A stretch of 64,000 bases of DNA from Acidobacteriota bacterium. Lineage in GTDB: Bacteria > Acidobacteriota > UBA6911 > JACQSX01. A model generated the notes under the pieces. That model was not told where the DNA came from. It did not search any database and was given only the letters and a program-made list of their open reading frames with translations. The stretch's first letter is position 1; the number at the start of each line of letters is the position of its first letter. The position numbers and the translations under genes were made by a program. Below, one piece after another: positions 26,122 through 47,449 of this stretch. The stretch is from NCBI GenBank assembly GCA_016211105.1, contig JACQSX010000010.1, positions 212,913 to 276,912 on the forward strand, given 5' to 3'.

Positions 26122-26682
26122 TTGAATCGAGCTGTCAAGCGTAATATCGGGCGATTCCCCAGCGACTTCGTGTTTCAACTGACGCTTGAGGAAGCGCGTG
26201 ACTTGAGGTTCCATTTTGGCACCTCACGTTTAAGGTCACAAATTGGCAGCTCAGCATTGGGTGGGCGGCATTACCGCCCCTACGCCTTCACGGAACAAGG
26301 CATAGCGATGCTGTCCAGTGTTCTCCGCAGCAAAAGAGCCGTCCAGGTCAACATCGCCATCATGCGCACTTTCGTGAGGCTCCGCCAGATGCTGGCAAGC
26401 CACAAAGATCTCGCCCGCAAGCTGGAAGCTCTGGAGGTAAAATATAACGCTCAGTTCAAAGTGGTTTTCGATGCCATCCGCAAGCTCAAGGAGCCATCAC
26501 CGGCCCCTTCACGACGTTGGATCGGTTTTACCGACAAGGGTGAGGATAGGAATTGGCACCATTACGACGCTCAGGGAACGGCTACGTCAATCGCCATCCT
26601 GGAGACTCGTTGTGCAGTTATCGCGAGGAGGCCTCGCTGTGGTAGAGCGTGGGTCAACCGTAGGGGAAAATTTCTAAGATGA
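26122..26682 (+). CDS. ORF6N-domain protein, N-terminally truncated copy
   Basis: KRNIGRFPSDFVFQLTLEE...RHYRPYAFTEQGIAMLSSVLRSKRAVQVNIAIMRTFVRLRQM. It lacks the about 45 N-terminal residues present in the 22975 copy. Confidence 0.5.
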   Translation: MNRAVKRNIGRFPSDFVFQLTLEEARDLRFHFGTSRLRSQIGSSALGGRHYRPYAFTEQGIAMLSSVLRSKRAVQVNIAIMRTFVRLRQMLASHKDLARKLEALEVKYNAQFKVVFDAIRKLKEPSPAPSRRWIGFTDKGEDRNWHHYDAQGTATSIAILETRCAVIARRPRCGRAWVNRRGKFLR

Positions 26683-28589
26683 TTCATCAATTCGCCGAAC
26701 TTGGGGGTTTTTACCGCGAAAGTGAGGGTATAGGAAACGGCGAGAAAGATCGTCTTGCCCAGTTCGTCCAGGATCCAGCGCAGAAGTTCCGCACGCGTAC
26801 CGTCCTGCTCCTTGTATTCTCTGGCAAAGGCTTCGAGCGCGTGAAGGTTGAGGACTACGACAACAATAGGAAGCTAATCTACCTTTATCGCGGGGGCCCA
26901 CCCAATGGGTGGGACGCGACCCCCACCACTGGCTTGCAGGCGGTGAGGAAGGCCGACGAATTCGATGAAGCGGTTAGAAAGAAACTGGCCCGGCTTGCCA
27001 GGAGTATCGCCGATGCCAAGGATCATGTCGATGGGCCTTCGGAAGCAGAGAAGCCCGCGCTCGAAGTTTTGCATTCCAAGATCGACACTGCAGGTAGTGC
27101 TGGCATTTCCGTTACGGAAGAATCGGAAAGGTTAGGAGCAAAAGTTCTTGCGGCGATCAAGTCCGCTCATCCACCTGAGTCTAAGGAGGCTGCAATTCTT
27201 TCTGTCGCATGGCAGACCACGGATGGGAACATCATGCGGGTCGGTGACTTCGCGGCCTTCCAACAGGCACTAACTCGGCACGGCCAAGGGGCAGCATCGC
27301 ATAAGAAAAGCATCGAGGGCGAGGTCAAAGGCAGGGGCCAGTGCTGCATCTGCGGGAAACTGAACACAGAAGTTTCTGGATTGCTTCAAGTGCCGCAATT
27401 CAAGCTTTACACACTGGATAAACCCGGATCGGTATCAGGTGGATTCAATGCAATCGATGCTTGGCGGAACTTCCCTGCCTGCCGGGAATGTTGCGACAAA
27501 GTCGACTTCGCAGGTGAGCGGATAAAGAAGAATCTCACGTTTGATTATTACTCGACGTTTAAGTACTTGTTCCTGCCCCTGGCTGTTCGCCTGCAGCCGA
27601 CTCTCGCGTTCGACTTGCTCGACCGTCTTATCAGTGCCCGCTTTAACAAAAAAGCCGCGAAACGCCTAACAGCGGCAGAGGACGAGTTGTTTTACGTTGT
27701 CGCTCTGGAGAAGAACTTCCTGCAGGTAGATCTGCTTTTCTATCAACCTGACCCTCAGTCATTTCGCCCAGCTCTTTATATATCGGGCCTTCTGCCATCC
27801 CGTTTTCGAGCACTGTTCGACGCAAAGGATCGTGTTGATGCCCACCCTTGGTTAAACGAGCCGAGTCCCAAGGCTTTTGTACAAGGACAGTTCACGTTCG
27901 GCTCAGTTAACAGGGTCTTTCCCCACGCCCACGGCGGTAGCAATTTCGATGACGACTTCATGGAGGCCACACGAGCAGCCCTTGAGTTACGACCGTTTCC
28001 AGCGACGCGGCTGTTGCAGAGTGGCATGCGGTGGGTTCGGCAAGATTACGTTGGTGGCAAAACATGGCAATATCGACTTGCCGATCTGTTTCGTTCGATC
28101 CTCTTCTTCGAAGAACTTCTGACACTCAGTCAGCAAAGGAGTAACGCAGCTATGCAAATCGATTATGGCAAATCTCCGCAGGCCGACCGCGTTCGCGCAG
28201 TCTTGAAAAATGCAACGGGGAAGCTCAGCACCGATCCGGCGGCTCAAGCAGCCTTTTTGGTTGGCGCCTGTTGCTTTCGAATCGAGCGCCTCCAGGAATT
28301 TGCGCGCGGGTCAACGCCATTCGCTGGCAAACTCAAAGGCTTCCGCCTCAATCAGGCCGATGTCCAGCGACGACTTTTCGTTGCAGCAAAGGACAAGGCC
28401 AAAGCCTACGGTGAAGGCAAAGTCGCCGGATTGCTTGAATGCGCAGGCGCCGCTCTTATGGTGGCGCCTGAGCAGTGGCCGCTTTCGCCCGACGAAGTGT
28501 CGTACTTCTTCGCCCTTGGCCATGCCTTAGGACCGCGATTTGCCAGTGATTCCAACGAAGGCGAGAAAGCCCAAGCAGCAAAGGAGTAG
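26679..28589 (+). CDS. cas8: Cas8 large subunit (family unresolved, Cas8b-like)
   Basis: 636 aa, first gene of the cas7-cas5-cas3 operon. Internal zinc finger CCICGKLN...CRECCDK as in Cas8a/b. Confidence 0.55.
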   Translation: MIHQFAELGGFYRESEGIGNGEKDRLAQFVQDPAQKFRTRTVLLLVFSGKGFERVKVEDYDNNRKLIYLYRGGPPNGWDATPTTGLQAVRKADEFDEAVRKKLARLARSIADAKDHVDGPSEAEKPALEVLHSKIDTAGSAGISVTEESERLGAKVLAAIKSAHPPESKEAAILSVAWQTTDGNIMRVGDFAAFQQALTRHGQGAASHKKSIEGEVKGRGQCCICGKLNTEVSGLLQVPQFKLYTLDKPGSVSGGFNAIDAWRNFPACRECCDKVDFAGERIKKNLTFDYYSTFKYLFLPLAVRLQPTLAFDLLDRLISARFNKKAAKRLTAAEDELFYVVALEKNFLQVDLLFYQPDPQSFRPALYISGLLPSRFRALFDAKDRVDAHPWLNEPSPKAFVQGQFTFGSVNRVFPHAHGGSNFDDDFMEATRAALELRPFPATRLLQSGMRWVRQDYVGGKTWQYRLADLFRSILFFEELLTLSQQRSNAAMQIDYGKSPQADRVRAVLKNATGKLSTDPAAQAAFLVGACCFRIERLQEFARGSTPFAGKLKGFRLNQADVQRRLFVAAKDKAKAYGEGKVAGLLECAGAALMVAPEQWPLSPDEVSYFFALGHALGPRFASDSNEGEKAQAAKE

Positions 28590-28665
28590 CAACATGGCAA
28601 AGAGAAAATCCAGGCCAAAACGCGGTAAGGAGCCAAAGCGTTCCAGAGCCATAAGGAGAAATGCA

Positions 28666-29688
28666 ATGAACAAGTCAATAATCAAAAACCGCACCGAAAT
28701 CTTGTTCGTTTACGACATCACGGATGCCAACCCGAATGGCGATCCAAACGATGAGAACCGCCCTAGAATGGACGTCGAAACGGGACTAGCAAAGGTTTCG
28801 GATGTCCGGCTCAAACGCACCGTTCGCGATTACCTGTACGACTACTCTGGCGAGGAGATCTTCTGCCGCGAGATTGAGAAACCAGATGGCACGATCCAGG
28901 AAGGCAAAGACCGAGCTGAGGACTTCTTCGATCAGGTTGAGGAGGCCGCGAGGAAGAAGGCGAAGAACGTCCTGGAGAAGCGCAACTTGATCCAGGCGGG
29001 CGTGCTGGAGAAGTGCATTGATGTTCGGCTTTTCGGCGCCACAATTCCAGTTGGGAAAATCCCGACCAACAAGAACGAGAAGGATTCCAGTGTCACGCTC
29101 ACCGGCCCAGTGCAGTTTGCAATGGGTAGCAGTCTTCATCGCGTTGAGCCGCGATTCATCAAGGGAACGGGTGCCTTTGCTTCAGGTCAGGGTGCTCAGC
29201 AGAAGACTTTCCGGGAGGAATACGTTCTCCCCTACGCGCTCATCAGCTTCTACGGAATCGTCAACCAGCAGGCAGCCAAAACGACGGGCCTCAGCGCCGA
29301 AGATGTGGAGAGGCTTTACGAAGCGATGTGGTACGGTACAAAGAACCTGATCACACGGTCCAAGATCGGGCAGCGACCCTTGTTGCTTGTGTTGGTCGAG
29401 TACAAGACTGAGAACGCGAACTCCTACATCGGACGGTTGGACCGCTTTTTGAGTCTTTCGAAAGATAACAAGAACGGAACCGTGCCGCGCGATGAAGAGC
29501 TTCGCGAGGTTCAACAGGGCAATCTCAATCTTGAGTCGTTATCTAAAGCCATCAACTCCAGAAAAGAGAAGATCGCGAGAATACGTTTCGCTTGGGATGA
29601 GCGTCTCCCACTGTCGCACCGGCCAGCTAAGTCGAACGGAAAGTGGACGTTCCTTGGATGTCCTGCTGAAAAACTGGAGTTCGAGTAA
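28666..29688 (+). CDS. cas7: Cas7 (Cascade backbone)
   Basis: N-terminal ILFVYDITDANPNGDPNDENRPR is the canonical Cas7/Csh2 motif. AAGGAGAA RBS before ATG 28666; an alternative start at 28594 would add a basic extension. Confidence 0.8.
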   Translation: MNKSIIKNRTEILFVYDITDANPNGDPNDENRPRMDVETGLAKVSDVRLKRTVRDYLYDYSGEEIFCREIEKPDGTIQEGKDRAEDFFDQVEEAARKKAKNVLEKRNLIQAGVLEKCIDVRLFGATIPVGKIPTNKNEKDSSVTLTGPVQFAMGSSLHRVEPRFIKGTGAFASGQGAQQKTFREEYVLPYALISFYGIVNQQAAKTTGLSAEDVERLYEAMWYGTKNLITRSKIGQRPLLLVLVEYKTENANSYIGRLDRFLSLSKDNKNGTVPRDEELREVQQGNLNLESLSKAINSRKEKIARIRFAWDERLPLSHRPAKSNGKWTFLGCPAEKLEFE

Positions 29689-29690
29689 TC

Positions 29691-30407
29691 ATGCGTCGCG
29701 AGTTCGCGATCTTCGATGTAGCATCGGACATGGCCCACTTTCGGCGTCAGTATGCTATCACCACGGCGCTGACATACGTTCTGCCACCTCGAACGGCGCT
29801 TTGTGGACTCATCGGCGCAGTGCTCGGCCTGCCCAAGAACGATTCGCTGTCGTCTTTTCAGGACCGCGAGGCTGTCTTCGGCATCCAAATCGTGGAACCG
29901 ATCCGCACAGGCCATGTCTCAATCAATCTTTTGGACACAAAGGGTAGTCCGGACTTCCGTCCGAAAGCGGTAAATCCGCACACAACCATGCGCTACGAAA
30001 TCGTGAGTTCTCCGCGATACCGCATCATGTTCAGCCATGCGAAACTGGCTCAGCAGCTTGCGACATCGCTTCAGCGTGGTGAATCGCGATACACACCATG
30101 CCTGGGCTTGGCTTGGATGGTAGCTTGGTTTCCGGACGCTTGCCGCACAGTCGACGTGGAGTTAATCGAGGGCGATAATGAAGTCCGGTCTTTCGTTTCC
30201 CCGGTGCGTGCAGACGACCTTGTGGCCGACGTTCAATGGAATGCGGACAGCGTCTATCAGCGATTGCGAATGCCGGCCGAGATGCAGCCGGATCGGCTGG
30301 TCACACGCTACGAGCAGTACATAATCGACACTACCGGGCATCCCATTGAAACCGCACTGAAAGTGTATTGGAGACTGCCGGATGACACTTGCTTTTCAGC
30401 AATGTGA
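29691..30407 (+). CDS. cas5: Cas5
   Basis: FRRQYAITTALTYVLPPRTALCGLIGAVLGL is the typical Cas5 N-terminal motif. Confidence 0.8.
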   Translation: MRREFAIFDVASDMAHFRRQYAITTALTYVLPPRTALCGLIGAVLGLPKNDSLSSFQDREAVFGIQIVEPIRTGHVSINLLDTKGSPDFRPKAVNPHTTMRYEIVSSPRYRIMFSHAKLAQQLATSLQRGESRYTPCLGLAWMVAWFPDACRTVDVELIEGDNEVRSFVSPVRADDLVADVQWNADSVYQRLRMPAEMQPDRLVTRYEQYIIDTTGHPIETALKVYWRLPDDTCFSAM

Positions 30408-32715
30408 ATCTCACCCAGGCCGATGGCTGGTCGACCACCTCGTCGATGTCGCGGGCCGCCTGCGGACTCGCAAAAGGTCGGTTCCGTGGCTTCCGCTCGC
30501 CGGGCTGTTTCACGACGTAGGGAAGGGCACCAGTTTCTTCCAAGCTCATCTTCACGGCCAGAAAGCACCGCAGGATCTGAAACGTCACGCGCAACTTGGG
30601 GCAGTGTGGCTGCTCTCTTACTTTCAGGGAAAAATTGGTCAGGAACTGTGCCCGGCGATCGAAGATTTAGCCTTAGCGCATCTTTTTGTGAACAGGCATC
30701 ATGGTCGGTTGGACGACCTCGTGGACACGCTCAACAATGGGGACGCAAAGGATCTCGATCGGTTCAAGCGGCAGCTGGTCTCAATGGACTGCGAGGGTGT
30801 TCGGCGATGGCTCGAAACAGAATTGGGTGAAACGATTCCTCTTCCCGAGCCGACTCAAAACTTGATCGCACTACGTGTCCAGCTACTGAAGGCACTCAAA
30901 ACTGGGAGATCAGACGTTGAAGCGATGGGGCGATTCCAAACAGCGCTCGCCTGCTTCGGCTCTTTGATCGAATCTGACAGAGACTCGGCCGCTGGTTTCT
31001 CTCCAGGAACATTTGAAGTGAAGCAGCAATGCGCCAGCAAGTACATTGCTCAGTTCCGAGCCTCCGGAGATTTTGGATCCGTCGCCGACACTAGTGTTTC
31101 GGCTGCTCGGGAGATGGTGTTTCAAAGCGCGGTCGCACAAGTCCTCGCTCACCCCGCAAACAATGGCCGTCTGTGGAGCCTCACCGTGCCGACGGGCGCA
31201 GGTAAGACACTGGCCGCGGTTGGTTGGGCTGTGGGGCGCCGGGAAGCACGCGTTGCAGCCGGCCTGCCACACTGTCCCATCATCTACGCTCTACCCTTCA
31301 CCAGCATCATTGATCAGAACGCGGCCGTAGTCCGCAAATTATGGTCCGAAGCGAAAATGGATGAAAGTTTGCTGGCCATCCACCATCATCTCTCTGAACT
31401 CGGAGATCTGGCCCAAGCTGGGGAGGAGTCGCTTGCACGAAGCTGGGTCGAGGGCTGGCGTGCCGATATCGTTTGTACCACGTTCGTTCAGGTGGCGAAC
31501 GCACTATTTCACGGCACTTGTGCTGACGCTCGTCGCTTTTCTAATCTTGCCGGTTCCATTCTCATTTTGGACGAGGTGCAGGCCATTCCTGCGGAATTGT
31601 GGCCGGTTTTCCGCGTCGCTTTAAAATCGCTATCTGAGAACTTTGGAACCGATATCCTTCTAGTAACAGCTACGCAGCCAGCGCTCTTCACCGAATCTGA
31701 CAAGACTGAAATCGGTCCACAGGGTTTTCCTCCGGCTATCGGTGCGGCATTCGATCGCTATGATCTGAAAGTGGAGATCGGCGCTTCTCTCAGCACGGAT
31801 GCACTTGAAACGCGCATTCGCGACGAACTACGGGGACACGCAACCAACTCGTGCCTGGTAGTCCTCAATACAGTCCAGGAGTCACTGGACCTCTACAATC
31901 TGCTTTCACAGTCGGACCTATTTCGGCAATACCGGCTGTTTCACCTGTCAACGAATCTCCGTCCCAAAGATCGCCGCCGGATACTTCGCAGAATCTCCGA
32001 GTGCTCACAGCCTCACATGCTTGTTGCAACGCAAGTGGTCGAAGCCGGAGTGGACCTTTCGTTTGACTTGGTTTTCCGGGCACTCGCGCCATTGGACTCG
32101 ATCATCCAGGCCGCCGGACGTTGCAACCGTCACGGCATCGGCCAACGGGGACGCGTCATCGTCGTAAACCCTGCGGGAAACAGTTGCCTCTACATCTATG
32201 GAAAGCTTCACATCGACGTTGCAAGAAGGCTGCTCGGGAAGGTAACCGCCGATTCTGCGGATGATTGGATCGCTGAACCTGATCTGCCGGGGTTAGTTAC
32301 TCAGTATTTCGACACCCTGAATGATGCGATTCAGCGAGATTCCGCAGCAAAGATAATGGAAGCTGTGCATCAATTCCAATTCGCCGCATTACGAGGGGAA
32401 GGGGAAGACAAAGATCGCAAGGACAAATGCATTCAGCTGATCGAGGACCAAGCTGATCGAGTTCCACACTTCATCGAAACAGACGACTCTGACGTGCAGC
32501 TCTGGAAAAACCTACTGATGGCCTTTTCAGTGACAGATCCTCACCGCCGGCGCCGCCAACTCCGGGCTTTGCGCAACGAGGTCGGTCAGCGAATCGTGGA
32601 AGTCCCGCGCAGGTTTGGATTGGGAACACCCGACGACCACTGGCTGGTCCATGTTCCAATTGCATCGTCGAGCGAATGCTACGACCCGGATACTGGCTGG
32701 ATTCGAAAACAATGA
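30382..32715 (+). CDS. cas3: Cas3 (HD nuclease + SF2 helicase)
   Basis: HD motif LFHDVGKG; Walker A LTVPTGAGKTLAAV; DExH-like ILDEVQAIP. Confidence 0.85.
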   Translation: MTLAFQQCESHPGRWLVDHLVDVAGRLRTRKRSVPWLPLAGLFHDVGKGTSFFQAHLHGQKAPQDLKRHAQLGAVWLLSYFQGKIGQELCPAIEDLALAHLFVNRHHGRLDDLVDTLNNGDAKDLDRFKRQLVSMDCEGVRRWLETELGETIPLPEPTQNLIALRVQLLKALKTGRSDVEAMGRFQTALACFGSLIESDRDSAAGFSPGTFEVKQQCASKYIAQFRASGDFGSVADTSVSAAREMVFQSAVAQVLAHPANNGRLWSLTVPTGAGKTLAAVGWAVGRREARVAAGLPHCPIIYALPFTSIIDQNAAVVRKLWSEAKMDESLLAIHHHLSELGDLAQAGEESLARSWVEGWRADIVCTTFVQVANALFHGTCADARRFSNLAGSILILDEVQAIPAELWPVFRVALKSLSENFGTDILLVTATQPALFTESDKTEIGPQGFPPAIGAAFDRYDLKVEIGASLSTDALETRIRDELRGHATNSCLVVLNTVQESLDLYNLLSQSDLFRQYRLFHLSTNLRPKDRRRILRRISECSQPHMLVATQVVEAGVDLSFDLVFRALAPLDSIIQAAGRCNRHGIGQRGRVIVVNPAGNSCLYIYGKLHIDVARRLLGKVTADSADDWIAEPDLPGLVTQYFDTLNDAIQRDSAAKIMEAVHQFQFAALRGEGEDKDRKDKCIQLIEDQADRVPHFIETDDSDVQLWKNLLMAFSVTDPHRRRRQLRALRNEVGQRIVEVPRRFGLGTPDDHWLVHVPIASSSECYDPDTGWIRKQ

Positions 32716-33458
32716 GTCTCGCAAGATCAGTTACGACTTTTCAGAACGCTGGCGGTCAAATTGTTCGCTTTACCTTTGCGGCCAGAAAACCTCCATTAGG
32801 TACGACGGTAGTGGTTGCCGAAGCCTTTCGCGCAGCCGTGCTGTCCGCATTGCACGCAACCACGGGAAACAAAGAATCCTTCCTCCTCTCCGGCCATCAC
32901 GAGGATGGCACTCCCGACAAGGAGCACCGCCACGCGTATTACTTACCACAGCCGAGTTATGGCGGGTCCCTCGCGGAAATCCTAATTGTGAGTCCGAGGC
33001 ATCGATTCTCTCCAGACGAATTGGCGGCGATGCAGATTGTGAAACGGTTGCGATGGAATGGCCCAAGCACACGAGTTCATCTGGAACTAGTAGACGGCGA
33101 TGACCACTCCGCAGTTCAGCTTGCAGCCGCGTGGACAAGTCTTACCCCTTACGTACCAGTTCGCCGCTTCTGGGGCACACACGGCAAGCATCACCTCACG
33201 CCGGAACGTCAACTAGCGAAAGAGTTGGAAAACCTGTCGTTCGGTGGATCGATCGTGAGCCTTGTTGTTGAGCCGTGGCAAGAAATCCGCGTGCGAGTTG
33301 CAAATAAGGGCGGTGAACGTGGTTTGACTTTATCGCGGCGAACCGGGTTTCGAGCGGTCTTTCGAACAGCTGAACCAATTTGTGGCCCTATCGCATTGGG
33401 CCATTCATGCCACTTCGGCCTTGGGCAATTCGTGCCGCTGGCCGATACGTCTCGCTGA
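32712..33458 (+). CDS. cas6: Cas6-like RAMP (putative crRNA endonuclease), coupled to the cas3 stop (ATGA)
   Basis: C-terminal glycine-rich loop GPIALGHSCHFGLGQFVP resembles the Cas6e G-loop. It is the last gene of the interference operon. Assignment is tentative. Confidence 0.4.
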   Translation: MSLARSVTTFQNAGGQIVRFTFAARKPPLGTTVVVAEAFRAAVLSALHATTGNKESFLLSGHHEDGTPDKEHRHAYYLPQPSYGGSLAEILIVSPRHRFSPDELAAMQIVKRLRWNGPSTRVHLELVDGDDHSAVQLAAAWTSLTPYVPVRRFWGTHGKHHLTPERQLAKELENLSFGGSIVSLVVEPWQEIRVRVANKGGERGLTLSRRTGFRAVFRTAEPICGPIALGHSCHFGLGQFVPLADTSR

Positions 33459-33467
33459 TGTCCCCAC

Positions 33468-33812
33468 ATGATCCCTAGCTTTCGCTACGCAATCGATACA
33501 GCGGCGATACATGGCCCCGTCTTGCCGCCGCTGACCGATACGTTGCTGGTAGCAGACAAGTTCCGCGCGGCGGCGATCGCCATCCACGAGAAGGTGGCCG
33601 ATCGCAACGGGAGGCACCACCCGCGAAACCTGTGCGGCCACGAAGAAAACGGCGATCCCTGCCAGGGACACGAACATGCCTTCTTCTGGCCCACCGACGA
33701 GGACAACGACGGCTTCATCGATCACGTGACCGTTTCCTGTTCCGGCCGCGGGGGACGCGGATTTGAGCAAAGCGAAATCGATGCCTTGCGTCGTCTGCTG
33801 CGCATCAAGTAG
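33468..33812 (+). CDS. paralogous fragment of the cas6-like family (N-terminal part, 114 aa)
   Basis: FRAAAIAIHEKVADRNGRHHPRNLCGHEENGDPCQGHEHAFFWP parallels AEAFRAAVLSALHATTGNKESFLLSGHHEDGTPDKEHRHAYYLP of the gene at 32712; it stops early. Confidence 0.4.
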   Translation: MIPSFRYAIDTAAIHGPVLPPLTDTLLVADKFRAAAIAIHEKVADRNGRHHPRNLCGHEENGDPCQGHEHAFFWPTDEDNDGFIDHVTVSCSGRGGRGFEQSEIDALRRLLRIK

Positions 33813-33923
33813 CCTGGCGGCCGGCCGGATTTGCTTGTCACGCCGGTGTTAGCCTGACACCCAGTACCAGTGGTCCGAAATCCACGAGCGTTTATGTCGG
33901 CAGTAATATAGAATTGCTGCGAG

Positions 33924-34160
33924 ATGCCGACCGTTCTGCGGGCTCGCTCTTATCGCTTTTTCTTTGCCTCGGCGGATCGAAATGAGCCTCCACATATTCA
34001 CGTGAGGCGCGGAAGGATGGTCGCCAAGTTCTGGTTAGAGCCTGTTGTGCTGGCGCGCGCAGGAGGTTTCAGCCGGCTAGAACTCAACACGATTGCGAAG
34101 CTTGTTGAGGCGCATCGTGATGAATTTCTGGAGAGTTGGAATGAGTTCTTCGGACGTTGA
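33924..34160 (+). CDS. DUF4160 domain protein
   Basis: NEPPHIHVRRG...AKFWLEPVVLA is the DUF4160 signature. Confidence 0.7.
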   Translation: MPTVLRARSYRFFFASADRNEPPHIHVRRGRMVAKFWLEPVVLARAGGFSRLELNTIAKLVEAHRDEFLESWNEFFGR

Positions 34161-34479: not shown

Positions 34480-34643
34480 GCCCAGCGCCGGTGCGCATGC
34501 TTCGCCTGCCACCAACTTATCACTCACCCAGCCCTCAGAGAACCGGTGAATCTCCAAGAGGTGAGAGGTGACGCTAAACCTTACCGGATCCGTCAATTCC
34601 TGCGGCTGGTGGAGCGATATAATCTTAAGCTAGAGGACAAGCA

Positions 34644-38133: not shown

Positions 38134-38135
38134 TA

Positions 38136-39108: not shown

Positions 39109-39204
39109 AAACTTCAGGGCCACAAGGCGACGCGATAGGGGACACCTGGCGACAGCGCGCTTAAACCTTTGACTTCAGGCCGGCTGTGCGTCATGATGTT
39201 AGAC

Positions 39205-39453: not shown

Positions 39454-39887
39454 CGGCCTACCTGGATTCGAGCGCGTTGATCAAACTCTACGTCACAGAG
39501 GCGGGATCGATCAAAGTAGCAGAGTACGTAAGAAGCTTAACGAAGCCGCTCCCATTTTCTCACCTTCACGAGATCGAGCTCAAGAACGCACTTCGATTGA
39601 AATACTTTCGGCAAGAGGCGCCCCGCCGCACGGTCGAGGCTTCTATTCGCTTAATTGACAACGATCTGGCGTCTGGGATTTTGGTAAGGCCGAACTTACA
39701 CTGGGTAGATGTGTTTCGCAAAGCGGAGGAATTATCTCAAAGGCATTCCCCGCATATCGGTTGCCGATCTCTTGACCTGTTACATGTCGCATGCGCCGTT
39801 TTGCTCCCTGCAGGGGATTTGCTGACCTTTGATGCTCGTCAAGCAAGTCTGGCCCTTCGTGCCGGTTTAAAAGTACTCTCAGTTTAG
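39450..39887 (+). CDS. vapC: VapC PIN-domain toxin
   Basis: MTAYLDSSALIKLYV... a PIN N-terminal D with later acidic residues; 4-bp overlap with the antitoxin. Confidence 0.75.
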   Translation: MTAYLDSSALIKLYVTEAGSIKVAEYVRSLTKPLPFSHLHEIELKNALRLKYFRQEAPRRTVEASIRLIDNDLASGILVRPNLHWVDVFRKAEELSQRHSPHIGCRSLDLLHVACAVLLPAGDLLTFDARQASLALRAGLKVLSV

Positions 39888-39939
39888 CTCGCCTTTATTT
39901 TGTGTTCGTTGGATTTTAGGGTTTCGCGCCGAAGCTGCA

Positions 39940-40245
39940 GTGATCGCGCCACCGTCACTGCGGTATCAAATTACTGATGCCTATGGCGAGCATGAGGAGC
40001 ACTCAGGCCTGTTGACGATGATCGAGGATCAATTGCGATTTCCCTTCCACGCCAAAGTGTTGGGGGATGTGGTCACTGTGGTCGGCATGGAATGGCCGGA
40101 GGACGATGAGTTCGGACTCGACTGTGTGTGCGAGCGGAATGGCCAGCGGCATCGGGTGGAAGCACGTTCGGTCGATCTGATCCGGCCGCTGCCTGAGGGT
40201 CATCTGTATCTCGCCGCATATTTGGAGTGGAAACGACATCTGTAG
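39940..40245 (+). CDS. conserved hypothetical protein, copy 2 of the duplicated gene
   Basis: TDAYGEHEEHSGLLTMIEDQLRFPFHAKVLGDVVTVVGMEWPEDDEFGL...AAYLEWKRHL. The duplication extends about 75 bp past the stop (40246-40320 versus 35646-35720). Confidence 0.4.
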   Translation: MIAPPSLRYQITDAYGEHEEHSGLLTMIEDQLRFPFHAKVLGDVVTVVGMEWPEDDEFGLDCVCERNGQRHRVEARSVDLIRPLPEGHLYLAAYLEWKRHL

Positions 40246-40499
40246 CCGCGTATCCCCCAGAGGTCCACTGTCAGTGACACAGTTGGCAACACAACCACTG
40301 TTGACTTGGAGGCTCTGGTCCAGGCGGTTGGAATTGCGAATGGCGCAAGCAATCCAAGAGGGCGCGCGTTCGAGTCCCTCAGGCGGGACGAGATCTTCAA
40401 AATCCTGCGTAAGCCTTTTGGAAATTTCCACCTGCAAGCCACGCCGCAGTCAAATGTGTTAGCCTATCCGTCACGGGGGAATAATGAAACAGCAGCTTT

Positions 40500-40778
40500 G
40501 TGTCGAACTCATCGCTGATTCCGAACAAGGAGGTTTTACTGCGCGCAATCGGGGAAAAAGGCCAGGTCGTGGTTCCGAAAGACATTCGCGATCATCTGCA
40601 TTTAAAGCCCGGGAGCACCGTTGTGTTTGAGGTGCGTGGGGACGGGGTGATCCTGAGGCCGGAAAAAACCGGCAAAGAGTTTGTCGATCAGTTCTGCACC
40701 ACCCGGCGCAAGCTGCGCAAGCCGGTCAGCATAAAGCAGATCAAGAAGACGATTGAAGAGCAGCATGGTGTACGTTGA
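40500..40778 (+). CDS. vapB: AbrB/SpoVT-family antitoxin (VapB-like)
   Basis: GQVVVPKDIRDHLHLKPGSTVVFEVRGDGVILRP. Confidence 0.65.
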   Translation: MSNSSLIPNKEVLLRAIGEKGQVVVPKDIRDHLHLKPGSTVVFEVRGDGVILRPEKTGKEFVDQFCTTRRKLRKPVSIKQIKKTIEEQHGVR

Positions 40779-41175
40779 CTCTAACATCTTCATCTTCGCT
40801 CTTCTGGCCGACGACAAGAACTCCGAACGCTGCAAATCGATCTTGACTCGAATCGCAAACGGCGAGCTAACGGCTTTTACCTCGACACTGACCTGGGACG
40901 AGATCGTTTGGTGCGCCCAAAGGTATTTGGGTCTAGACGACGCGCTGCAGGCGGGCAAGAGGTTTCTCGATTTTCCTTTTCTAAGTGTTCTTGACGCCAC
41001 TGAGCCGGTCCTGCGCCGGGCACAGGACGTGATGGAGCAGTACGGCCTCAAGCCGAGAGATGCCATCCACGTTGCGACGGCTCTCGCCAGAGGAATCGGA
41101 GAGATCCTCAGTGAAGATAACGATCTCGACATCGTAAAAGAGCTGAAACGAACCAGCCTGCGGCGTTACTCTTAA
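40768..41175 (+). CDS. vapC: VapC PIN-domain toxin
   Basis: MVYVDSNIFIFALL...; overlaps vapB. Confidence 0.75.
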   Translation: MYVDSNIFIFALLADDKNSERCKSILTRIANGELTAFTSTLTWDEIVWCAQRYLGLDDALQAGKRFLDFPFLSVLDATEPVLRRAQDVMEQYGLKPRDAIHVATALARGIGEILSEDNDLDIVKELKRTSLRRYS

Positions 41176-41248
41176 ACTTCGGACATGGGGCTCAATTTGC
41201 CCGGGAGCTGTCCAGAAGTCCGAAAGCTGACCCAGCGGCAGGCGCCAA

Positions 41249-41458
41249 TTGTCGATACATCCCGAAACCTTGCATGAGGTGGAGGCGATCGACGAGTTGG
41301 TCTTCGACTATGCTGCCATCGAGTTCGCCGAGGTCAGAAAAAAGGTGGACACCCAAGAGTTGCGCCAACCCGTTCCACCGCGGCAGTACTTCCCCGTGAT
41401 TGACCCGCCCGCTTTCATGCTCCGCTCGGAACCAAATTGGATTCGGGTCCGGGTGTGA
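41249..41458 (+). CDS. third fragment of the cas6-like paralogue family (C-terminal piece)
   Basis: VEAIDELVFDYAAIEFAEVRKKVDTQELRQPVPPRQYFPVIDPPA matches VEAVEELVFDYAPDEFAVVRQQVDARQLREPVPPRQYFPVIDPPA at about 37640. Confidence 0.35.
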   Translation: MSIHPETLHEVEAIDELVFDYAAIEFAEVRKKVDTQELRQPVPPRQYFPVIDPPAFMLRSEPNWIRVRV

Positions 41459-41491
41459 CATAAACTAGGCTGTGCCACACAGGGTGACCGC

Positions 41492-41596
41492 GTGAAAGTT
41501 CGGGAGGTGATTCGGATGTTGGAAGCAGAGGGTTGGCGCTTGGTGGTGACTGAAGTCATAGGTAGTTCAAACATCCAAAGCGGCCAGGGCGCGTGA
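41492..41596 (+). CDS. hicA: short hicA-like ORF (GTG start, 34 aa), probably degenerate
   Basis: VKVREVIRMLEAEGWRLV... has the HicA N-terminal motif but is only about half the usual length. Confidence 0.3.
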   Translation: MKVREVIRMLEAEGWRLVVTEVIGSSNIQSGQGA

Positions 41597-41681
41597 CTGT
41601 CAGCGGTCGTCTCGGCGACGATATGCCCCAAGGGACGCTTGCCTCGGTAAAGCGCCAGGCGGGCTGGAAGCGAGGGAAGTT

Positions 41682-41945
41682 ATGAGAAAGCTTCAATATT
41701 TGGTTCGCATTAATAAGGATCCGGATAGCGACTGGGGCGCCTCGGTTCCGGATCTCCCCGGGTGCGTTGCAACCGGAAAGACTATCGACGACGCCCTTCA
41801 AAGAATCCAGAAGGCGATCACGTTGCACCTTCAAGGGATGCGGCAGGATGGGATGAAGCCACCGCGCCCGCGCCTTCGTGCGGTTACTCCACGCAGAACC
41901 TCGCGGCGCGTCGATTTCTATGCCACTGTCGAAGTGGCAGCCTGA
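41682..41945 (+). CDS. hicB: HicB-family antitoxin (UPF0150)
   Basis: MRKLQYLVRINKDPDSDWGASVPDLPGCVATGKTIDDALQRIQKAITLHLQGMRQDG. Confidence 0.65.
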   Translation: MRKLQYLVRINKDPDSDWGASVPDLPGCVATGKTIDDALQRIQKAITLHLQGMRQDGMKPPRPRLRAVTPRRTSRRVDFYATVEVAA

Positions 41946-42189
41946 CCAAGCCCCACACCCGCGTGCGGAAATTCCCGCCTTGGATTTCAAAACTCCGGGG
42001 CTGAATGGTTGGACCCAGCTAGCTACCCGAACGCGGCGGTGAAGGATCCCGATGCCGATCCCGGCTGTCCTTTTGGGTTGTCGATCGGGCAAGCGCTAGT
42101 TGTAAGTGGCGGCCTCACTGACGACAGAGTTGCCGAGCAAATGGCAAGCCGCTGACTGTGTGACTACAATCTCGGAAAACGGCGCCACG

Positions 42190-42384
42190 ATGAAATACGT
42201 AGGCATCCGACAACTAAAGGCCGAGCTTACGCGCTACCTGCGGGCAGTGGAGGCTGGAGAGACACTCACTGTGGCGACCTGGAAACATCCCATAGCGCAG
42301 GTCGTTTCCATCAAAAAGAGAGGAGACGTCGAAGAGATCCGTGATGCTTTAGCGGAACAGGGCCTCCTTGCCGGACTTGCGTGA
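42190..42384 (+). CDS. Phd/YefM-family antitoxin, orphan copy
   Basis: MKYVGIRQLKAELTRYLRAVEAGETLTV is near-identical to the 43360 gene, which has a PIN partner. Confidence 0.5.
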   Translation: MKYVGIRQLKAELTRYLRAVEAGETLTVATWKHPIAQVVSIKKRGDVEEIRDALAEQGLLAGLA

Positions 42385-42584
42385 ACCGTCGTCTGTGGCG
42401 CGCCCTCAAAAGATCTCCAACGTAGGCACGATGGAGGGAAAGGTCCAGCACTAGTCTCGCGGCAGGATCCAACAGCTACCGCCCTGCTCTAAGATAAGAT
42501 GAAGAGATAAGATGAAGAGGTTGACAGCCCAAATGCCTATCGAATAAGCTATCGTTATACGCTTACATCATCGATAGGCAACTT

Positions 42585-42791
42585 ATGAGTACGCTGACCC
42601 TGTCCCCCAAGTTTCAAGTGGTCATCCCGAAAGCCATCCGGGAGAAGCTCGGCCTCTCTCCAGGACAGAAGATTCAAGCTATTCTCTACGGCAACCGCAT
42701 TGAATTGATTCCGCTGCGCCCCATAACGGAAATGCGCGGGTTCCTGAAAGGGATTGACACCACCGTCAAACGCGAGGTCGACCGTGTATGA
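42585..42791 (+). CDS. vapB: AbrB/SpoVT-family antitoxin (VapB)
   Basis: FQVVIPKAIREKLGLSPGQKIQAILYGNRIELIP. Confidence 0.65.
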   Translation: MSTLTLSPKFQVVIPKAIREKLGLSPGQKIQAILYGNRIELIPLRPITEMRGFLKGIDTTVKREVDRV

Positions 42792-43165
42792 ACGTGGTCG
42801 ACTCCAGCGGGTGGTTGGAATATTTTGCCAACGGTCCTAATGCTTCCTTCTTTGCGCCGGGCGTTGAAGGTATCGATGAACTCATCGTCCCGACGATCAC
42901 GATCTTTGAGGTGTTCAAACGGATTTTGCAGCAGCGGAGCGAGAACGAGGCGCTACAGGCTGCCGCGGCCATGCAGCAGGGGATGGTCGCAGACCTGGAC
43001 TCCCGAATCGCCGTAGCTGCGGCCCGAATTAGCCTCGATCACAAGCTCCCGATGGCAGACAGCATCGTTCTGGCGTCGGCCCGGGCCTATGGAGCTGTGC
43101 TGTGGACGCAGGACGTTGATTTTAAAGGTTTGCCGGGAGTGCGATACCGGATGAAGCGAGAGTGA
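42788..43165 (+). CDS. vapC: VapC PIN-domain toxin
   Basis: MNVVDSSGWLEYF...; 4-bp overlap with vapB. Confidence 0.75.
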   Translation: MNVVDSSGWLEYFANGPNASFFAPGVEGIDELIVPTITIFEVFKRILQQRSENEALQAAAAMQQGMVADLDSRIAVAAARISLDHKLPMADSIVLASARAYGAVLWTQDVDFKGLPGVRYRMKRE

Positions 43166-43359
43166 GCTCCGGCAAGAAAGAATCAAGCCGGCGCCGGAGG
43201 CCTCTGATTTTGCCTAGTCTTTAAGACCATGCTTGGTGGGAGCATTTGGAGGAATCCTTCTTTCCTTAAAGGGTGAACCAGACTTGGGCGGCGCTCTACG
43301 CGGCTTGAAACCGACCGAGCCTTGACTTTGTGACCACAATATTTAAAAATGAAACCACG

Positions 43360-43641
43360 ATGAAATACGTGGGCGTCCGACAACTGAAGGCCGAGCTTAC
43401 GCGCTATCTGCGGGCAGTGGAGGCTGGAGAGACACTCACCGTGACGACCCGGAAACGCCCCATAGCGCAGGTCGTTCCCATCAAGAAGAGGGGAGACGTC
43501 GAAGAGATCCTTGATGCTTTAGCGCAAGAGGGTCTGCTTCGCCGGGCTCGGCGCAAGCCATCGCCCGTGGCGCGCCCTCTCAAAACCTCCAAGGTGCGAA
43601 TCGGCGAGGCGGTTCTGGAGGACCGCCGTGCGTTACTTTGA
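43360..43641 (+). CDS. Phd/YefM-family antitoxin
   Basis: MKYVGVRQLKAELTRYLRAVEAGETLTVTTRKRPIAQVVP. Confidence 0.6.
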   Translation: MKYVGVRQLKAELTRYLRAVEAGETLTVTTRKRPIAQVVPIKKRGDVEEILDALAQEGLLRRARRKPSPVARPLKTSKVRIGEAVLEDRRALL

Positions 43642-44068
43642 CACCAGCGCGTTGGTAAAGCAGTATTTTGTCGAGCCCGGCTCCATGGCCGTCAGAGAGC
43701 TTCTCAAGAGTGGGGAAAGAGTGTTTACGGCCGTATTGACTTATGCAGAAACGCACGCAGCCTTTGCACGGCGGAAACGCGAAGGGATACTTTCTCCGAC
43801 TGCCACTCGGAGACTTGCGCTTCGCTTTGACAAGGACTGGGAGTCGTACGAGGTTGTCTTATTGAACAGGGAACTTCTCTCTCTGGCGCGTCAAATTCTT
43901 TACCGTCACACCCTGCGATCCGCCGATGCCATCCAACTCGCCTCAGCGCTCCTTCTTGCCAGAAGAGCTCCTCAACCCCAATGGGTATTTGTCTGTGCCG
44001 ATCAAAGACTGTGCGCTGCGGCATCCGTCGAGGGCCTTCAGCCTGTCGATGTGACGTTGACTCACTGA
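43628..44068 (+). CDS. vapC: VapC PIN-domain toxin
   Basis: MRYFDTSALVKQYFVEPGS... is a PIN N-terminus; overlaps the antitoxin. Confidence 0.75.
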   Translation: MRYFDTSALVKQYFVEPGSMAVRELLKSGERVFTAVLTYAETHAAFARRKREGILSPTATRRLALRFDKDWESYEVVLLNRELLSLARQILYRHTLRSADAIQLASALLLARRAPQPQWVFVCADQRLCAAASVEGLQPVDVTLTH

Positions 44069-44159
44069 AAGAGTTACTGTAGGGGTTCGGCGTCGATAAG
44101 GGCGGGTCTGAAGAGGCCGTTCTGATCTCACTTTTCGGGATCAAGCCACCTTGAAGTGA

Positions 44160-44480
<321 letters not shown>

Positions 44481-44597: not shown

Positions 44598-44804
44598 CTA
44601 CAGGTCAGTTTGTTGCTGGCCGATTTGAGGAACCGACAAGGTGCGGAAAATTTTTCTGGTAAGGAGATTCGGGATTTCTGTGTGCCGCGGTATGGCCTCG
44701 ACTGCGCCCGTTGCTGGATTGCACGAGAGGGAGTGAGATTGTCCCTCCCGCTTCAAGTAACACCCGTGCTTTCGCAGGTGTAACAACAGGGAAGAGCGTT
44801 TCAC
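44598..44804 (-). CDS. hicA: HicA toxin
   Basis: KRSSLLLHLRKHGCYLKREGQSHSLSCNPATGAVEAIPRHTEI. Confidence 0.65.
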   Translation of the reverse strand: MKRSSLLLHLRKHGCYLKREGQSHSLSCNPATGAVEAIPRHTEIPNLLTRKIFRTLSVPQIGQQQTDL

Positions 44805-45010
44805 TTCACGGTGACTGTCCCAAGTTCAGCCTCGGGAGGTACACCGCGCAGTCCCTGCTCTTTTCGATCTTCCAAAATCAGGGCAATGGCCGCGCCCAGG
44901 CTTTCCCGCGCTTCCTCCTTCGTCTTTCCCTGACCATTGGCTCCCGGGATTTCAGGGCAATATGCGATGTACCATTCCCCATCACGCTCGAAAACTGCCG
45001 TGAACTCCAT
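44801..45010 (-). CDS. hicB: HicB antitoxin (UPF0150)
   Basis: MEFTAVFERDGEWYIAYCPEIPGANGQGKTKEEARESL. Confidence 0.65.
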   Translation of the reverse strand: MEFTAVFERDGEWYIAYCPEIPGANGQGKTKEEARESLGAAIALILEDRKEQGLRGVPPEAELGTVTVK

Positions 45011-45153
45011 ACTCGCCCTCCTAACCTTTCCGAAAAGGACGAAACGTTCGTCCTGGCGCTTGATTCTGAATTGTATTCCATAACCCGCGTGATGTCTAAT
45101 GAACCGCGGTTTGCACGGTTTGCAGAATCTGCAAAGCGGCTTAAACGATTCTC

Positions 45154-46926
45154 ATGAGCGCGCCAAAACCCTTAGCACAATCCAGACAGTCCCCGCTGCC
45201 CGACTATTTACCGGCGCGGATGGTGAATGAGTTTGTCTACTGCCCGCGGCTTTTTTTCTACGAATGGGTGGAAGGCGTTTTCAGAGAAAGCGCCGACACA
45301 GTGGAGGGGAAGGTCCAACATAAGCGCGTTGACGAGGGACCTACGCACCTTCCGATGGCCCAGGCAATGCCAGAGGAAAAAATCCACTCCCGCTCTGTCA
45401 CGCTTTCCAGCGACCGTTGCCGGGTCATCGCGCGCATTGATCTGGTGGAGGTCTCCGGGGGACTGGTTACACCGGTGGATTACAAACATGGCCAACCTCG
45501 GGAAACGGACCAGGGCATAGAACTTTGGCCCGCGGATCGTGTCCAGCTTGCCGTTCAGGGGCTGATCCTTCGGGAAAACGGTTACGCTTGCGGTGAGGGT
45601 GTGGTTTATTACGCAAAGACCAAGCAGCGCGTCCGCGTGCCGTTTGATGAAGACTTGATGTCGGAAACGATTCGGACCATCGAAGAGGCGCGGGCATTGG
45701 CAGCCAGTGGGTGTATACCTCCGCCTCTTGTGGATTCACCGAAGTGCCCCGGTTGCTCGCTGGTTGGGATTTGCCTCCCGGATGAAACGAATGCACTGCT
45801 GGGCCGAACGTTGGAGAGCGTTGTTCAGCTTCCCTTGTTTGGAGCGGAAGAACAAACACCTTCCAAGAAGCCAATGGCTGATGTGCGGCGGTTGCTGGCG
45901 CCTAGAGACGATCTGCGGCCGCTTTACCTGAACAGCCAAGGCCTGCGCGTAGGCAAGTCGGGCGAAGTCCTGCAGATGCGCGACAGGGACAAGCTCATTC
46001 AGGAAGTCCGAATTGGTGAGATTTGCCAACTGAACCTCCTCGGCAACATCCAACTCTCCACGCAAGCCATTCAGGCATTGTGTGAAGGTGAAATTCCAAT
46101 TTGCTACTTTTCGCAGGGAGGATGGTTTTACGGCATCACCACTGGGATGAACACGAAAAACGTTTTCCTGAGGCGGTCGCAGTTTCGGCTCGCCGATCAA
46201 GAATGGTTCACCCTGTCCCTGTCGCGACGGCTCGTCGCCGGCAAAATTCGGAATCAACGGACCATGCTCCAAAGAAATCATCTGGAGCCAAAGCCCGAGA
46301 CCTTGCAGGAACTGAAGCGAATGGCGCAGCGGGCGGAGCAGGCGGAGAATTTAGAGGAGCTACTTGGGCTCGAAGGAAATGCAGCTCGATTGTACTTCGG
46401 GGAATTTGCAGGCATGATCAAAGTGGCCGAGGAAGAGGGAATTTCACGGCAGTTCCAGTTCGATTTTGCATCACGTAACCGGCGACCGCCGCGCGACGCG
46501 GTGAATGCTCTGCTTTCGCTTGCTTACAGCTTACTGGTGAAGGACTTCACACTTGCTTGTTATGCCGTTGGATTTGATCCCTTGTTGGGCTACTATCATC
46601 AACCGCGTTTTGGGCGTCCCGCTCTTGCGCTGGACTTGATGGAGCCCTTCCGGCCACTGATTGCGGATTCGGCAGTGTTGAGCGCAATTAATACGCGGAT
46701 GGTGACACCGGGCGATTTCATACAAACGGGGCCGGCTGTAGCGCTCACTGCCGGTGGCAGGAAGGGGTTTTTTCGGGCCTACGAGCTGCGCATGGACACG
46801 ATGGTGACACACCCGGTTTTTGACTATAGAGTTACTTACCGGCGGTTGTTAGAGATTCAGGCGCGGCTGCTGGCGCGAGTTCTGGAGGGGGAAACGGGGG
46901 AGTACCCGGTTTTTGTCACGCGTTGA
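45154..46926 (+). CDS. cas4-cas1: Cas4-Cas1 fusion
   Basis: N-terminal RecB-like Cas4 (YCPRLFFYEW, C-terminal Cys cluster CPGCSLVGIC) followed by a Cas1 core (LRVGKSGEVLQMRDRDKLIQEVRIGEICQLNLLGNIQLSTQAIQAL). Confidence 0.85.
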   Translation: MSAPKPLAQSRQSPLPDYLPARMVNEFVYCPRLFFYEWVEGVFRESADTVEGKVQHKRVDEGPTHLPMAQAMPEEKIHSRSVTLSSDRCRVIARIDLVEVSGGLVTPVDYKHGQPRETDQGIELWPADRVQLAVQGLILRENGYACGEGVVYYAKTKQRVRVPFDEDLMSETIRTIEEARALAASGCIPPPLVDSPKCPGCSLVGICLPDETNALLGRTLESVVQLPLFGAEEQTPSKKPMADVRRLLAPRDDLRPLYLNSQGLRVGKSGEVLQMRDRDKLIQEVRIGEICQLNLLGNIQLSTQAIQALCEGEIPICYFSQGGWFYGITTGMNTKNVFLRRSQFRLADQEWFTLSLSRRLVAGKIRNQRTMLQRNHLEPKPETLQELKRMAQRAEQAENLEELLGLEGNAARLYFGEFAGMIKVAEEEGISRQFQFDFASRNRRPPRDAVNALLSLAYSLLVKDFTLACYAVGFDPLLGYYHQPRFGRPALALDLMEPFRPLIADSAVLSAINTRMVTPGDFIQTGPAVALTAGGRKGFFRAYELRMDTMVTHPVFDYRVTYRRLLEIQARLLARVLEGETGEYPVFVTR

Positions 46927-47123
46927 TGAATCGAAGTTTCAGTCGCGAGAGGTCAAGTGATGAGAGATGCCCTGGGGACCGCTCGTGTTCATCTAAGGTG
47001 TTTGGTTTGAGAAAGATTTCTTGTTTCTCGACGAGCCGGCGGCGGGGAGAAAGGAGGCTGGCGACAATCGCTCGCAAGTGGCTTGGTAGATCTTTGACAA
47101 CTAAAAGGGTTAGGATGCGGGCT

Positions 47124-47449
47124 CATTCCGCGATCAATTGATCGCGGCCCCATTGAAGCGCACGATACGCGCGCGCGGTATCCCAGGCACCGCACATTCC
47201 GCGATCAATTGATCGCGGCCCCATTGAAGCGACTGGACTACGTTGGCATGGCAGTCGGGAAGTCGATGCATTCCGCGATCAATTGATCGCGGCCCCATTG
47301 AAGCCCTCCGCTCCATTGGGCCACGTCAAGCGCCGCTTGGTCATTCCGCGATCAATTGATCGCGGCCCCATTGAAGCATCCATTCATTTGCCCATTGGAG
47401 CCAGGAGCCAGATCATTCCGCGATCAATTGATCGCGGCCCCATTGAAGC
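47124..47449 (+). CRISPR. CRISPR array: 5 repeats of 36 bp, 4 spacers of 35-38 bp
   Basis: Repeat CATTCCGCGATCAATTGATCGCGGCCCCATTGAAGC, read directly at 47124, 47195, 47269, 47342 and 47414. It has an internal 20-bp palindrome and an ATTGAAGC 3' handle. The leader abuts cas1. Confidence 0.9.

Follow-up and report, generated by a model that had tools for sequence, protein, structure and literature searches.

Can a CRISPR-Cas locus exchange its interference genes for those of another subtype and keep its own adaptation genes and array? This question is raised by a locus in a metagenome-assembled genome of Acidobacteriota (contig JACQSX010000010.1), of which a stretch of 64,000 nt, hereafter the window, was analysed. 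Genes of type I-B and type I-G character stand here in one order, namely cas8b-cas7-cas5-cas3-cas6L, a 10.7-kb block of toxin-antitoxin (TA) genes, cas2, a cas4/cas1 fusion and a CRISPR array (26679-47449). A first-pass annotation, made from the sequence alone, had suggested a chimera of interference and adaptation modules, and all features that it placed in the locus were confirmed by profile, Pfam and repeat searches. On the basis of sequence comparison, we consider it likely, with a probability of roughly 0.75, that an I-B-like cassette replaced the effector genes of a resident I-G locus in situ, and that the I-G adaptation module and the array were kept. Cassette, adaptation module and array would probably constitute a single type I CRISPR-Cas locus of composite nature, which lies within a defence island of the Acidobacteriota genome.

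Subtype affinities of the Cas proteins

The Cas proteins were typed with NCBIfam profiles and their curated bit cut-offs, and the TA genes were assigned by Pfam. When each Cas protein was typed by such hidden Markov models, as the first-pass annotation had recommended, no single subtype emerged: Cas7, Cas5 and Cas3 were assigned to type I-B, and Cas4/Cas1, the Cas6-like protein and the repeat to type I-G (Table 1). The curated cut-offs were passed by the I-B models for Cas7, Cas5 and Cas3 and by the I-G models for Cas4/Cas1 and Csb2. The interference genes (26679-33458) all lie on the plus strand, and all seven cas genes (7/7) are intact and full length in comparison with their orthologues. 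The large subunit Cas8 reached 104.9 bits with TIGR02556 (cut-off 157) and E 6.8e-19 with the Csh1 model TIGR02591, likewise below the cut-off. Its orthologues in the loci L003, L006, L087, L096, L098 and L102 are of equal length and 46-63% identical, and they match Pfam Cas_TM1802. The domain order of Cas3 is that of types I-B and I-C and not of type I-G: the Cas3g model gave 129.8 bits where 400 are required, and a true Cas3g, such as that of L007, carries its HD domain at residues 795-928. The real start of cas7 may lie further downstream than 28540. The fused Cas4-Cas1 had been read as typical of type I-G/I-U, and the present protein matches NF049935 over the full length; for some I-B systems, Cas4-Cas1 fusions have been reported as well (PMC5704561).

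An assembly chimera was considered as the origin of this layout and was rejected. The junction of cas3, cas6L, a csb2 fragment and TA genes was recovered in the contigs L001 and L002, and the junction Phd-PIN-cas2-hicB-cas4/cas1 in the contig L167, in each case with 100% protein identity; these contigs are independent assemblies of two sequencing runs. Since both junctions of the gap are reproduced, the layout is real. A compositional break in GC content was looked for around the cassette, and none was seen.

Type I-G relatives and type I-G remnants

To collect relatives of the adaptation module, representative genomes were scanned with Cas4/Cas1 as the query. This yielded 80 loci with 63-81% identity to the Cas4/Cas1 of the window; 78/80 are labelled as Acidobacteriota lineages. 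I-B-like effector genes were present in none of them (0/80). A recognisable I-G effector set was found upstream by tblastn in about 40/80; with the L009 queries, the 10 kb searched in the remaining loci showed nothing recognisable. In 78/80, cas4/cas1 is immediately preceded by a cas2 gene of the same orientation; the contigs of the remaining two end too early for the order to be seen. Therefore, cas2 before cas4/cas1 is the normal order in this clade. The earlier view of the gene order as foreign to every standard layout is thus not supported for either half of the locus, as cas8-cas7-cas5-cas3 is the canonical I-B order. The only unusual features of the layout are the size of the TA nest and the stand-alone Csb2-type Cas6 in last position.

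In a neighbour-joining tree of Cas4/Cas1 the window adjoins the I-G loci L007, L008 and L009. L009 is a complete I-G locus with the order WYL-cas3g-cas8g-csb1-csb2-cas2-cas4/cas1, and L007 is complete with the order csb1-csb2-cas3g-cas3 extension-cas2-cas4/cas1. The Cas4/Cas1 of the window is 76% identical to that of L009 and 81% to that of L007, and its Cas2 is 84-88% identical to the Cas2 of these two loci (L009 84%). The WYL regulator on the left shares 59% identity over 335 aa with the WYL gene immediately before L009 cas3g; judged by this match, it belongs to the original I-G locus as its conserved left border. With these identities of WYL, Cas2 and Cas4/Cas1 to L009, both flanks of the window are therefore syntenic with an I-G locus.

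Of the I-G effector genes, Cas3g and Cas8g are present only as fragments, and no match to Csb1 was found in the window. The I-G remnants that had been noticed upstream of the cassette proved real and consist of two N-terminal Cas3g fragments, N1 and N2, which by tblastn are 55% and 68% identical to L009 Cas3g. N2, which continues at 26032-26160, is a tandem duplicate of N1 (DNA repeat 24206-24430 versus 25748-25972, 81%). On the other side of the cassette follow two csb2 fragments, f1 (51% identical to L042 csb2) and f2, whose DNA is 73-83% identical to the overlapping part of f1. The scars bracket the cassette, with cas3g codons 1-159 and 1-143 on the left and csb2 from codon 272 immediately on the right. 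The idea of a chimera is supported, because Cas4/Cas1 nests among I-G loci, I-G fragments flank the cassette and the WYL regulator matches an I-G locus.

The cassette itself is not confined to the window. The operon cas8b-cas7-cas5-cas3-cas6L, with cas6L last, is conserved in about 20 metagenome contigs at 43-73% identity, and its neighbours vary: cas4/cas1 and then cas2 in L006, cas2 directly in L095, TA pairs and then cas2-cas4/cas1 in L097 and L099, a divergent cas2-cas4/cas1 with an array in L098, and a type III-B module in L003. In L095, L097, L098 and L099 the linked cas2-cas4/cas1 is of the I-G type. I-G scars lie beside the cassette in four independent loci, that is in the window, in L006 (Cas3g positions 1-85), in L098 (Csb2 positions 1-193 upstream of cas8b) and in L088/L089 (csb2 pieces after cas6L). 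In the window, the open reading frame (ORF) of f1 starts 10 nt past the cas6L stop in the same frame (33456-33470), at csb2 residue ~272, which aligns with the start of cas6L. This start of f1, together with the N-terminal half of Csb2 upstream of cas8b in L098, hints at cassette entry at the Csb2 inter-domain linker.

Do these loci instead represent a single native variant subtype, in which the I-B-like genes, cas6L, cas2 and cas4/cas1 always go together and the insertion of TA genes was the only event? We regard this as unlikely, since the cassette-linked Cas4/Cas1 proteins do not group together in the tree but branch at three distinct positions, each time surrounded by I-G loci, and the closest adaptation relatives of the window have full I-G effector sets. 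Such a subtype would account for the succession of cas6L by cas2-cas4/cas1 in L095, L097 and L099 and by cas4/cas1-cas2 in L006, for a DUF433/DUF5615 pair at the equivalent position in L097 and L099, and for the repeat family common to cassette and I-G loci; it does not account for the I-G fragments beside the cassette in the window and three other loci, nor for the opposite ranking of effector and adaptation identities. L006, the only contiguous locus of the same cassette, is 56-73% identical to the window in its effectors but only 48% in Cas4/Cas1 and 42% in Cas2, whereas L098 shows 46-63% in the effectors, 61% in Cas4/Cas1 and 77% in Cas2. The three-place distribution of Cas4/Cas1 and the incongruent identities therefore support repeated in situ replacement of I-G effectors. 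Together with the mixed typing and the lack of I-B-like genes in the 80 related loci, the incongruent L006 identities bear out a chimera of I-B-like interference and I-G adaptation modules.

Table 1. Coordinates of the features in the 64,000-nt window and the evidence for their assignment.
Feature	Position	Strand	Evidence
WYL-domain regulator (helix-turn-helix-WYL-WCX)	20947-21987	+	Pfam WCX E 8.2e-14, WYL E 6.6e-11
cas3g 5' fragment N1, codons 1-159 of ~920, pseudogene	24203-24784	+	TIGR02621 positions 2-126, E 4.1e-37
cas3g 5' fragment N2, codons 1-76, frameshift, ~94-143	25745-26160	+	TIGR02621 positions 1-77, E 2.7e-25
ORF6N-domain protein	26122-26682	+	Pfam ORF6N E 1.2e-17; stop overlaps cas8 start by 4 bp
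cas8b-like large subunit, TM1802 family, intact	26679-28589	+	TIGR02556 E 3.8e-30, residues 1-617
cas7, Csh2 / I-B type, intact	28540-29688	+	TIGR02590 277.9 bits (cut-off 171.6)
cas5 (Cas5b)	29691-30407	+	TIGR02592 102.3 bits (cut-off 97)
cas3, HD nuclease N-terminal to helicase	30382-32715	+	cas3_HD 16-201, cas3_core 268-598, both above cut-off
cas6L, predicted stand-alone Cas6 endoribonuclease	32712-33458 (alternative start 32676)	+	TIGR02165 positions 246-491 of 492
csb2 fragment f1, codons ~272-403 of canonical I-G Csb2	33468-33812	+	tblastn with L009 Csb2 38%, E 1.5e-17
Type II TA / TA-like nest	33924-44068	+	Pfam
csb2 fragment f2, codons ~332-474	37252-37863	+	tblastn, DNA repeat, translation
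cas8g2 5' fragment	~38452-38613, within ORF 38365-38844	+	TIGR04106 positions 2-60 of 282, E 1.4e-21
cas2, intact, I-G lineage	44190-44480	+	Pfam E 1.4e-21
hicA-like and hicB-like genes	44598-44804 and 44801-45010	-	weak Pfam: HicA_toxin E 0.0023, UPF0150 E 0.0014
cas4/cas1 fusion (Cas4g/Cas1g), intact	45154-46926	+	NF049935 764.9 bits (cut-off 560), positions 1-546 of 546
Leader	46927-47123	+	repeat-proximal 51 nt 80% identical to I-G locus L038 leader
CRISPR array, 5 identical 36-nt repeats CATTCCGCGATCAATTGATCGCGGCCCCATTGAAGC and 4 spacers of 35-38 nt	47124-47449	+	

Cas6L, the array and the intervening genes

The last gene of the cassette encodes a protein of 248-260 aa, Cas6L, for which Csb2 was the sole matching model (56.9 bits, cut-off 45). 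A Csb2-type Cas5-Cas6 fusion is not present, as Cas6L covers only the C-terminal half of Csb2 and Cas5 is a separate gene of the I-B type; in the NCBI annotation the protein is labelled "type I-U Cas5/Cas6". An AlphaFold model (predicted local distance difference test 88.6, predicted template modelling score 0.86) was compared with the PDB by Foldseek. The top 12 matches were all Cas6-family proteins (best E 3.7e-07, TM score up to 0.56), mostly Cas6, with one Cas6-related protein, one Cas6-like protein of the repeat-associated mysterious protein (RAMP) superfamily and the type IV Cas6 Csf5. In the model, Cas6L has the Cas6 fold with two RNA recognition motifs and a C-terminal glycine-rich loop. 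A sequence search against PDB chains gave no match, and only the fold search was informative. The C-terminal motif GHSxHFGLG is invariant in Cas6L and common to Csb2. Within this motif H231 is invariant and H234 nearly invariant; both are putative catalytic histidines and candidate counterparts of H503 in Csb2 from Thioalkalivibrio sulfidiphilus (PMC9638904). We also considered cas6L as a truncated leftover of csb2 and rejected this, given at least 83 stand-alone homologues of ~245 aa, a 4-bp overlap with cas3 that recurs in orthologous loci, and a confident full Cas6 fold.

Seven matches to the repeat were found in the window, where none (0) was expected from shuffles. The five repeats of the array are identical, and a degenerate terminal repeat is lacking. 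Between this repeat and those of the I-G loci L060 and L066 there are 1-2 nt differences, and the cassette-adjacent arrays of L006 and L098 have repeats of the same family. In a comparison of 31 repeats, an 8-bp hairpin proved to be conserved (7/8 stem pairs covary), followed by 4 nt and the invariant ATTGAAGC. Hairpin, 4 nt and an 8-nt handle are the geometry of Csb2 cleavage in T. sulfidiphilus (PMC9638904). From the Cas6 fold, the Csb2 motif, the shared repeat family and this geometry, we infer that an I-B-like Cascade would receive CRISPR RNA that Cas6L has cut from the I-G-type array. Two solitary copies of the repeat with two mismatches each lie 7.4 and 13.4 kb past the array (54868-54901 and 60855-60888), intergenic among metal-efflux and outer-membrane genes. 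The first is followed by a HicB-like ORF (54965-55129), and the similarity of the second to the real array extends over ~20 nt of leader-proximal sequence. These copies may be relics of broken arrays or isolated, putative Cas6L binding sites.

Some observations weigh against an effector replacement of this kind. The Cas8 protein scores under its curated cut-off, the neighbour-joining trees carry no support values, and the array is very short, with 4 spacers compared to up to 109 in relatives. None of the four spacers has an exact match in IMG/VR; without a protospacer from this database, no protospacer-adjacent motif could be derived and current activity is unproven. Moreover, the I-G scars are duplicated and their order is scrambled, with csb2 pieces before the cas8g2 piece and a WYL piece at 39.9 kb. 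Therefore, a single clean replacement is no sufficient explanation. Some of these features would also suit a decaying locus, in which cassette and adaptation module with array are uncoupled and a graveyard of defence genes is kept by TA addiction: the few spacers and their missing targets, the many pseudogene fragments and duplications, and a TA pair inserted even between cas2 and cas4/cas1. A scan for promoters and terminators (32.5-47.8 kb), which has also to be counted here, gave counts at chance level and therefore allows no statement on transcription units. Nevertheless, decay appears improbable for a locus in which none of the seven cas ORFs is broken or truncated, the five repeats do not differ and none at the end is degenerate, the 4-bp overlap of cas3 and cas6L is kept as in orthologous loci and Cas4/Cas1 reaches 765 bits across the whole model.

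Under the preferred in situ replacement, the resident I-G locus would have had the layout WYL, cas3g, cas8g, csb1, csb2, cas2, cas4/cas1, leader and array. The five-gene cassette (I-B-type cas8b-cas7-cas5-cas3 and cas6L) would have taken the place of the I-G effector genes, which would persist only as fragments, with the I-G adaptation module, leader and array untouched. Such a swap could be workable, as Cas6L is homologous to the Cas6 domain of Csb2 and cassette-adjacent arrays elsewhere share the I-G repeat family with ATTGAAGC. Cas6L would cleave the CRISPR RNA precursor 8 nt from the 3' end of the repeat, and Cascade would then be assembled from Cas8b, Cas7 and Cas5, with Cas6L on the hairpin. 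Targets would be degraded by the HD-helicase Cas3, and spacers would be added by Cas2 and Cas4/Cas1, the latter selecting the protospacer-adjacent motif TTN in type I-G systems (PMC9638904). In the 10.7 kb between the modules, type II TA pairs and I-G scars would have accumulated afterwards, and tandem segmental duplication would have enlarged this stretch.

It is tempting to go one step further, although we hold this only tentatively, and to regard the cassette as a distinct unnamed hybrid lineage. It would have had a single origin that joined I-B-type effectors to the Cas6 half of I-G csb2, and since then would have served as a plug-compatible replacement cartridge for I-G loci. Entry may have occurred at or near the Csb2 inter-domain linker, leaving stubs of cas3g and csb2. 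Such a cassette could take over resident I-G adaptation modules and arrays because its Cas6 would read I-G repeats.

The gap between the two modules (33459-44189) contains ~20 small plus-strand genes with TA-type Pfam domains. It had been described as filled by about a dozen TA and TA-remnant genes; the filling was confirmed, the number was too low, and the csb2 and cas8g2 fragments came in addition. Adjacent antitoxin-toxin pairs with recognised domains are two Phd-PIN pairs, two AbrB/MazE-PIN pairs, DUF4160/DUF2442 and DUF433/DUF5615, the last with a truncated DUF5615 (positions 1-34 of 110 only). One lone Phd and three HicB-like genes, for which no clear HicA was seen, are remnants, and a DUF4258 gene completes the nest. 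Tandem segmental duplications form three sets of 73-89% identity (23441-25972, 33662-41956 and 42153-43595), each with cas scars or TA genes, and within the nest repeat blocks of 85-89% identity are found at 35375-35712/39975-40311, 36687-37029/41407-41956 and 42153-42423/43323-43595. The block order f1-D1-HicB, f2-D1'-HicB' suggests that a unit of ~4-5 kb was duplicated, with indels afterwards. A 23-codon piece of a WYL C-terminus (39907-39975), 70% identical to residues 289-311 of the intact regulator, abuts the repeat block 39975-40311. An element of 31-42 nt occurs three times at 93-97% identity (23298-23339, 38051-38091 inverted and 63285-63317) and may be a small repeat resembling repetitive extragenic palindromes or miniature inverted-repeat transposable elements.

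Within the adaptation module, the 673-bp space between cas2 and cas4/cas1 is due to the hicB/hicA-like pair on the minus strand. Its two genes overlap by 4 bp, and the hicB-like gene was also called in L167. A 148-aa ORF at this place (44711-45157) was rejected as a cas gene, as it matched no family and the hicB/hicA-like pair lies on the opposite strand. That TA genes split the locus was correctly seen in the first pass, but this is not unique to it. TA pairs between effector and adaptation genes were also found in L097, L099 and L104, and a TA gene between cas2 and cas4/cas1 in L078. In the published model I-G locus of T. sulfidiphilus, two TA systems lie between csb2 and cas4-1 (PMC9638904), and in Sulfolobales vapBC pairs are interspersed in cas gene cassettes (PMC4390879). 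By these comparisons, the nest of the window is an enlarged case of a recurrent arrangement that appears to have grown partly by tandem duplication. Most likely it is selfish or addictive filler that stabilises the island and not a component of the CRISPR mechanism.

Genomic surroundings and comparison with known systems

The effector operon is preceded by an ORF6N gene (KilA-N/antirepressor-like), whose 4-bp overlap with the cas8 start codon looks as if the two were co-translated. A partial copy lies at 23122-23297, and homologues occur near the I-G loci L134 and L147. Further upstream, positions 1-20000 form a defence island. Encoded here are a type I restriction-modification system (hsdR/S/M, 4127-10076, minus strand) and GmrSD (10162-11997), in addition to a Hypoth_Ymh protein and an HNH protein (15133-16230). 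An N6/N4 DNA methylase (16597-17595) precedes a 777-aa protein; to this protein and to two others of 811 and 801 aa no function was assigned. Right after the array, a resistance-nodulation-division efflux operon on the minus strand (47710-54561; HlyD-type adaptor, AcrB-family pump, outer-membrane factor) with a ChrB-like regulator marks the right edge of the island.

Each ingredient of the locus is already known, and the novelty is modest and the case instructive; the less familiar element is a cassette that ends in a stand-alone Csb2-type Cas6. In a non-exhaustive literature search, no published account of this cassette or of such an I-B-into-I-G swap was found. The main text of the 2025 CRISPR classification paper does not mention I-G, Csb2 or Cas4-Cas1, and its three mentions of I-B concern other matters; as these terms were searched in the main text only, it is not proven that the cassette has no published name. 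The locus displays module shuffling in unusual detail, as stubs of the displaced I-G effectors are still visible on both sides of the incoming cassette. It suggests a testable rule: provided that its own Cas6 suits the resident repeat, an effector cassette can adopt a foreign adaptation module together with the array. The stand-alone Csb2-type Cas6 also bears on the relation between the I-G Cas5-Cas6 fusion and I-B systems, and loci of this kind are prone to "hybrid" typing or mis-annotation.

Type I-B loci of the Tneap/Hmari kind have the layout cas6-cas8b-cas7-cas5-cas3-cas4-cas1-cas2. The window resembles them in the order cas8b-cas7-cas5-cas3, in Cas7 (Csh2) and Cas5b above their cut-offs and in a Cas3 with N-terminal HD domain. 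It differs in that its Cas6 is a homologue of the Csb2 C-terminal domain, placed last and overlapping cas3, in a Cas8 under the TM1802 cut-off, and in a Cas4/Cas1 fusion preceded by cas2 instead of separate cas4, cas1 and cas2 genes. With type I-G/I-U of Geobacter sulfurreducens and T. sulfidiphilus (PMC9638904; PMC6547450) it shares the Cas4/Cas1 fusion, the Csb2-type Cas6 domain, the 36-nt repeat with hairpin, 4 nt and 8-nt ATTGAAGC-type handle, the upstream WYL regulator and, as in T. sulfidiphilus, TA genes between effector and adaptation genes. Unlike type I-G, it has no intact Cas3g, Cas8g or Csb1, and instead of the fused Csb2 it encodes an I-B-type Cas5 and a stand-alone Cas6L as two proteins. 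The TA-interspersed cas cassettes described before (PMC4390879; PMC9638904) likewise contain type II pairs between modules, here PIN/VapC-like, Phd, AbrB, HicAB and DUF433/DUF5615, whereas the nest of the window comprises ~20 genes over 10.7 kb, with tandem duplications and cas pseudogene fragments mixed in. In situ effector replacement beside conserved Cas4-containing adaptation modules has been documented (Hudaiberdiev et al., 2017; PMC5704561). As in those cases, the adaptation module and flanks match relatives, the effectors are of another subtype and the boundaries are identifiable; in contrast to them, the displaced genes of the window remain as multiple fragments, and the incoming Cas6 matches the resident repeat family.

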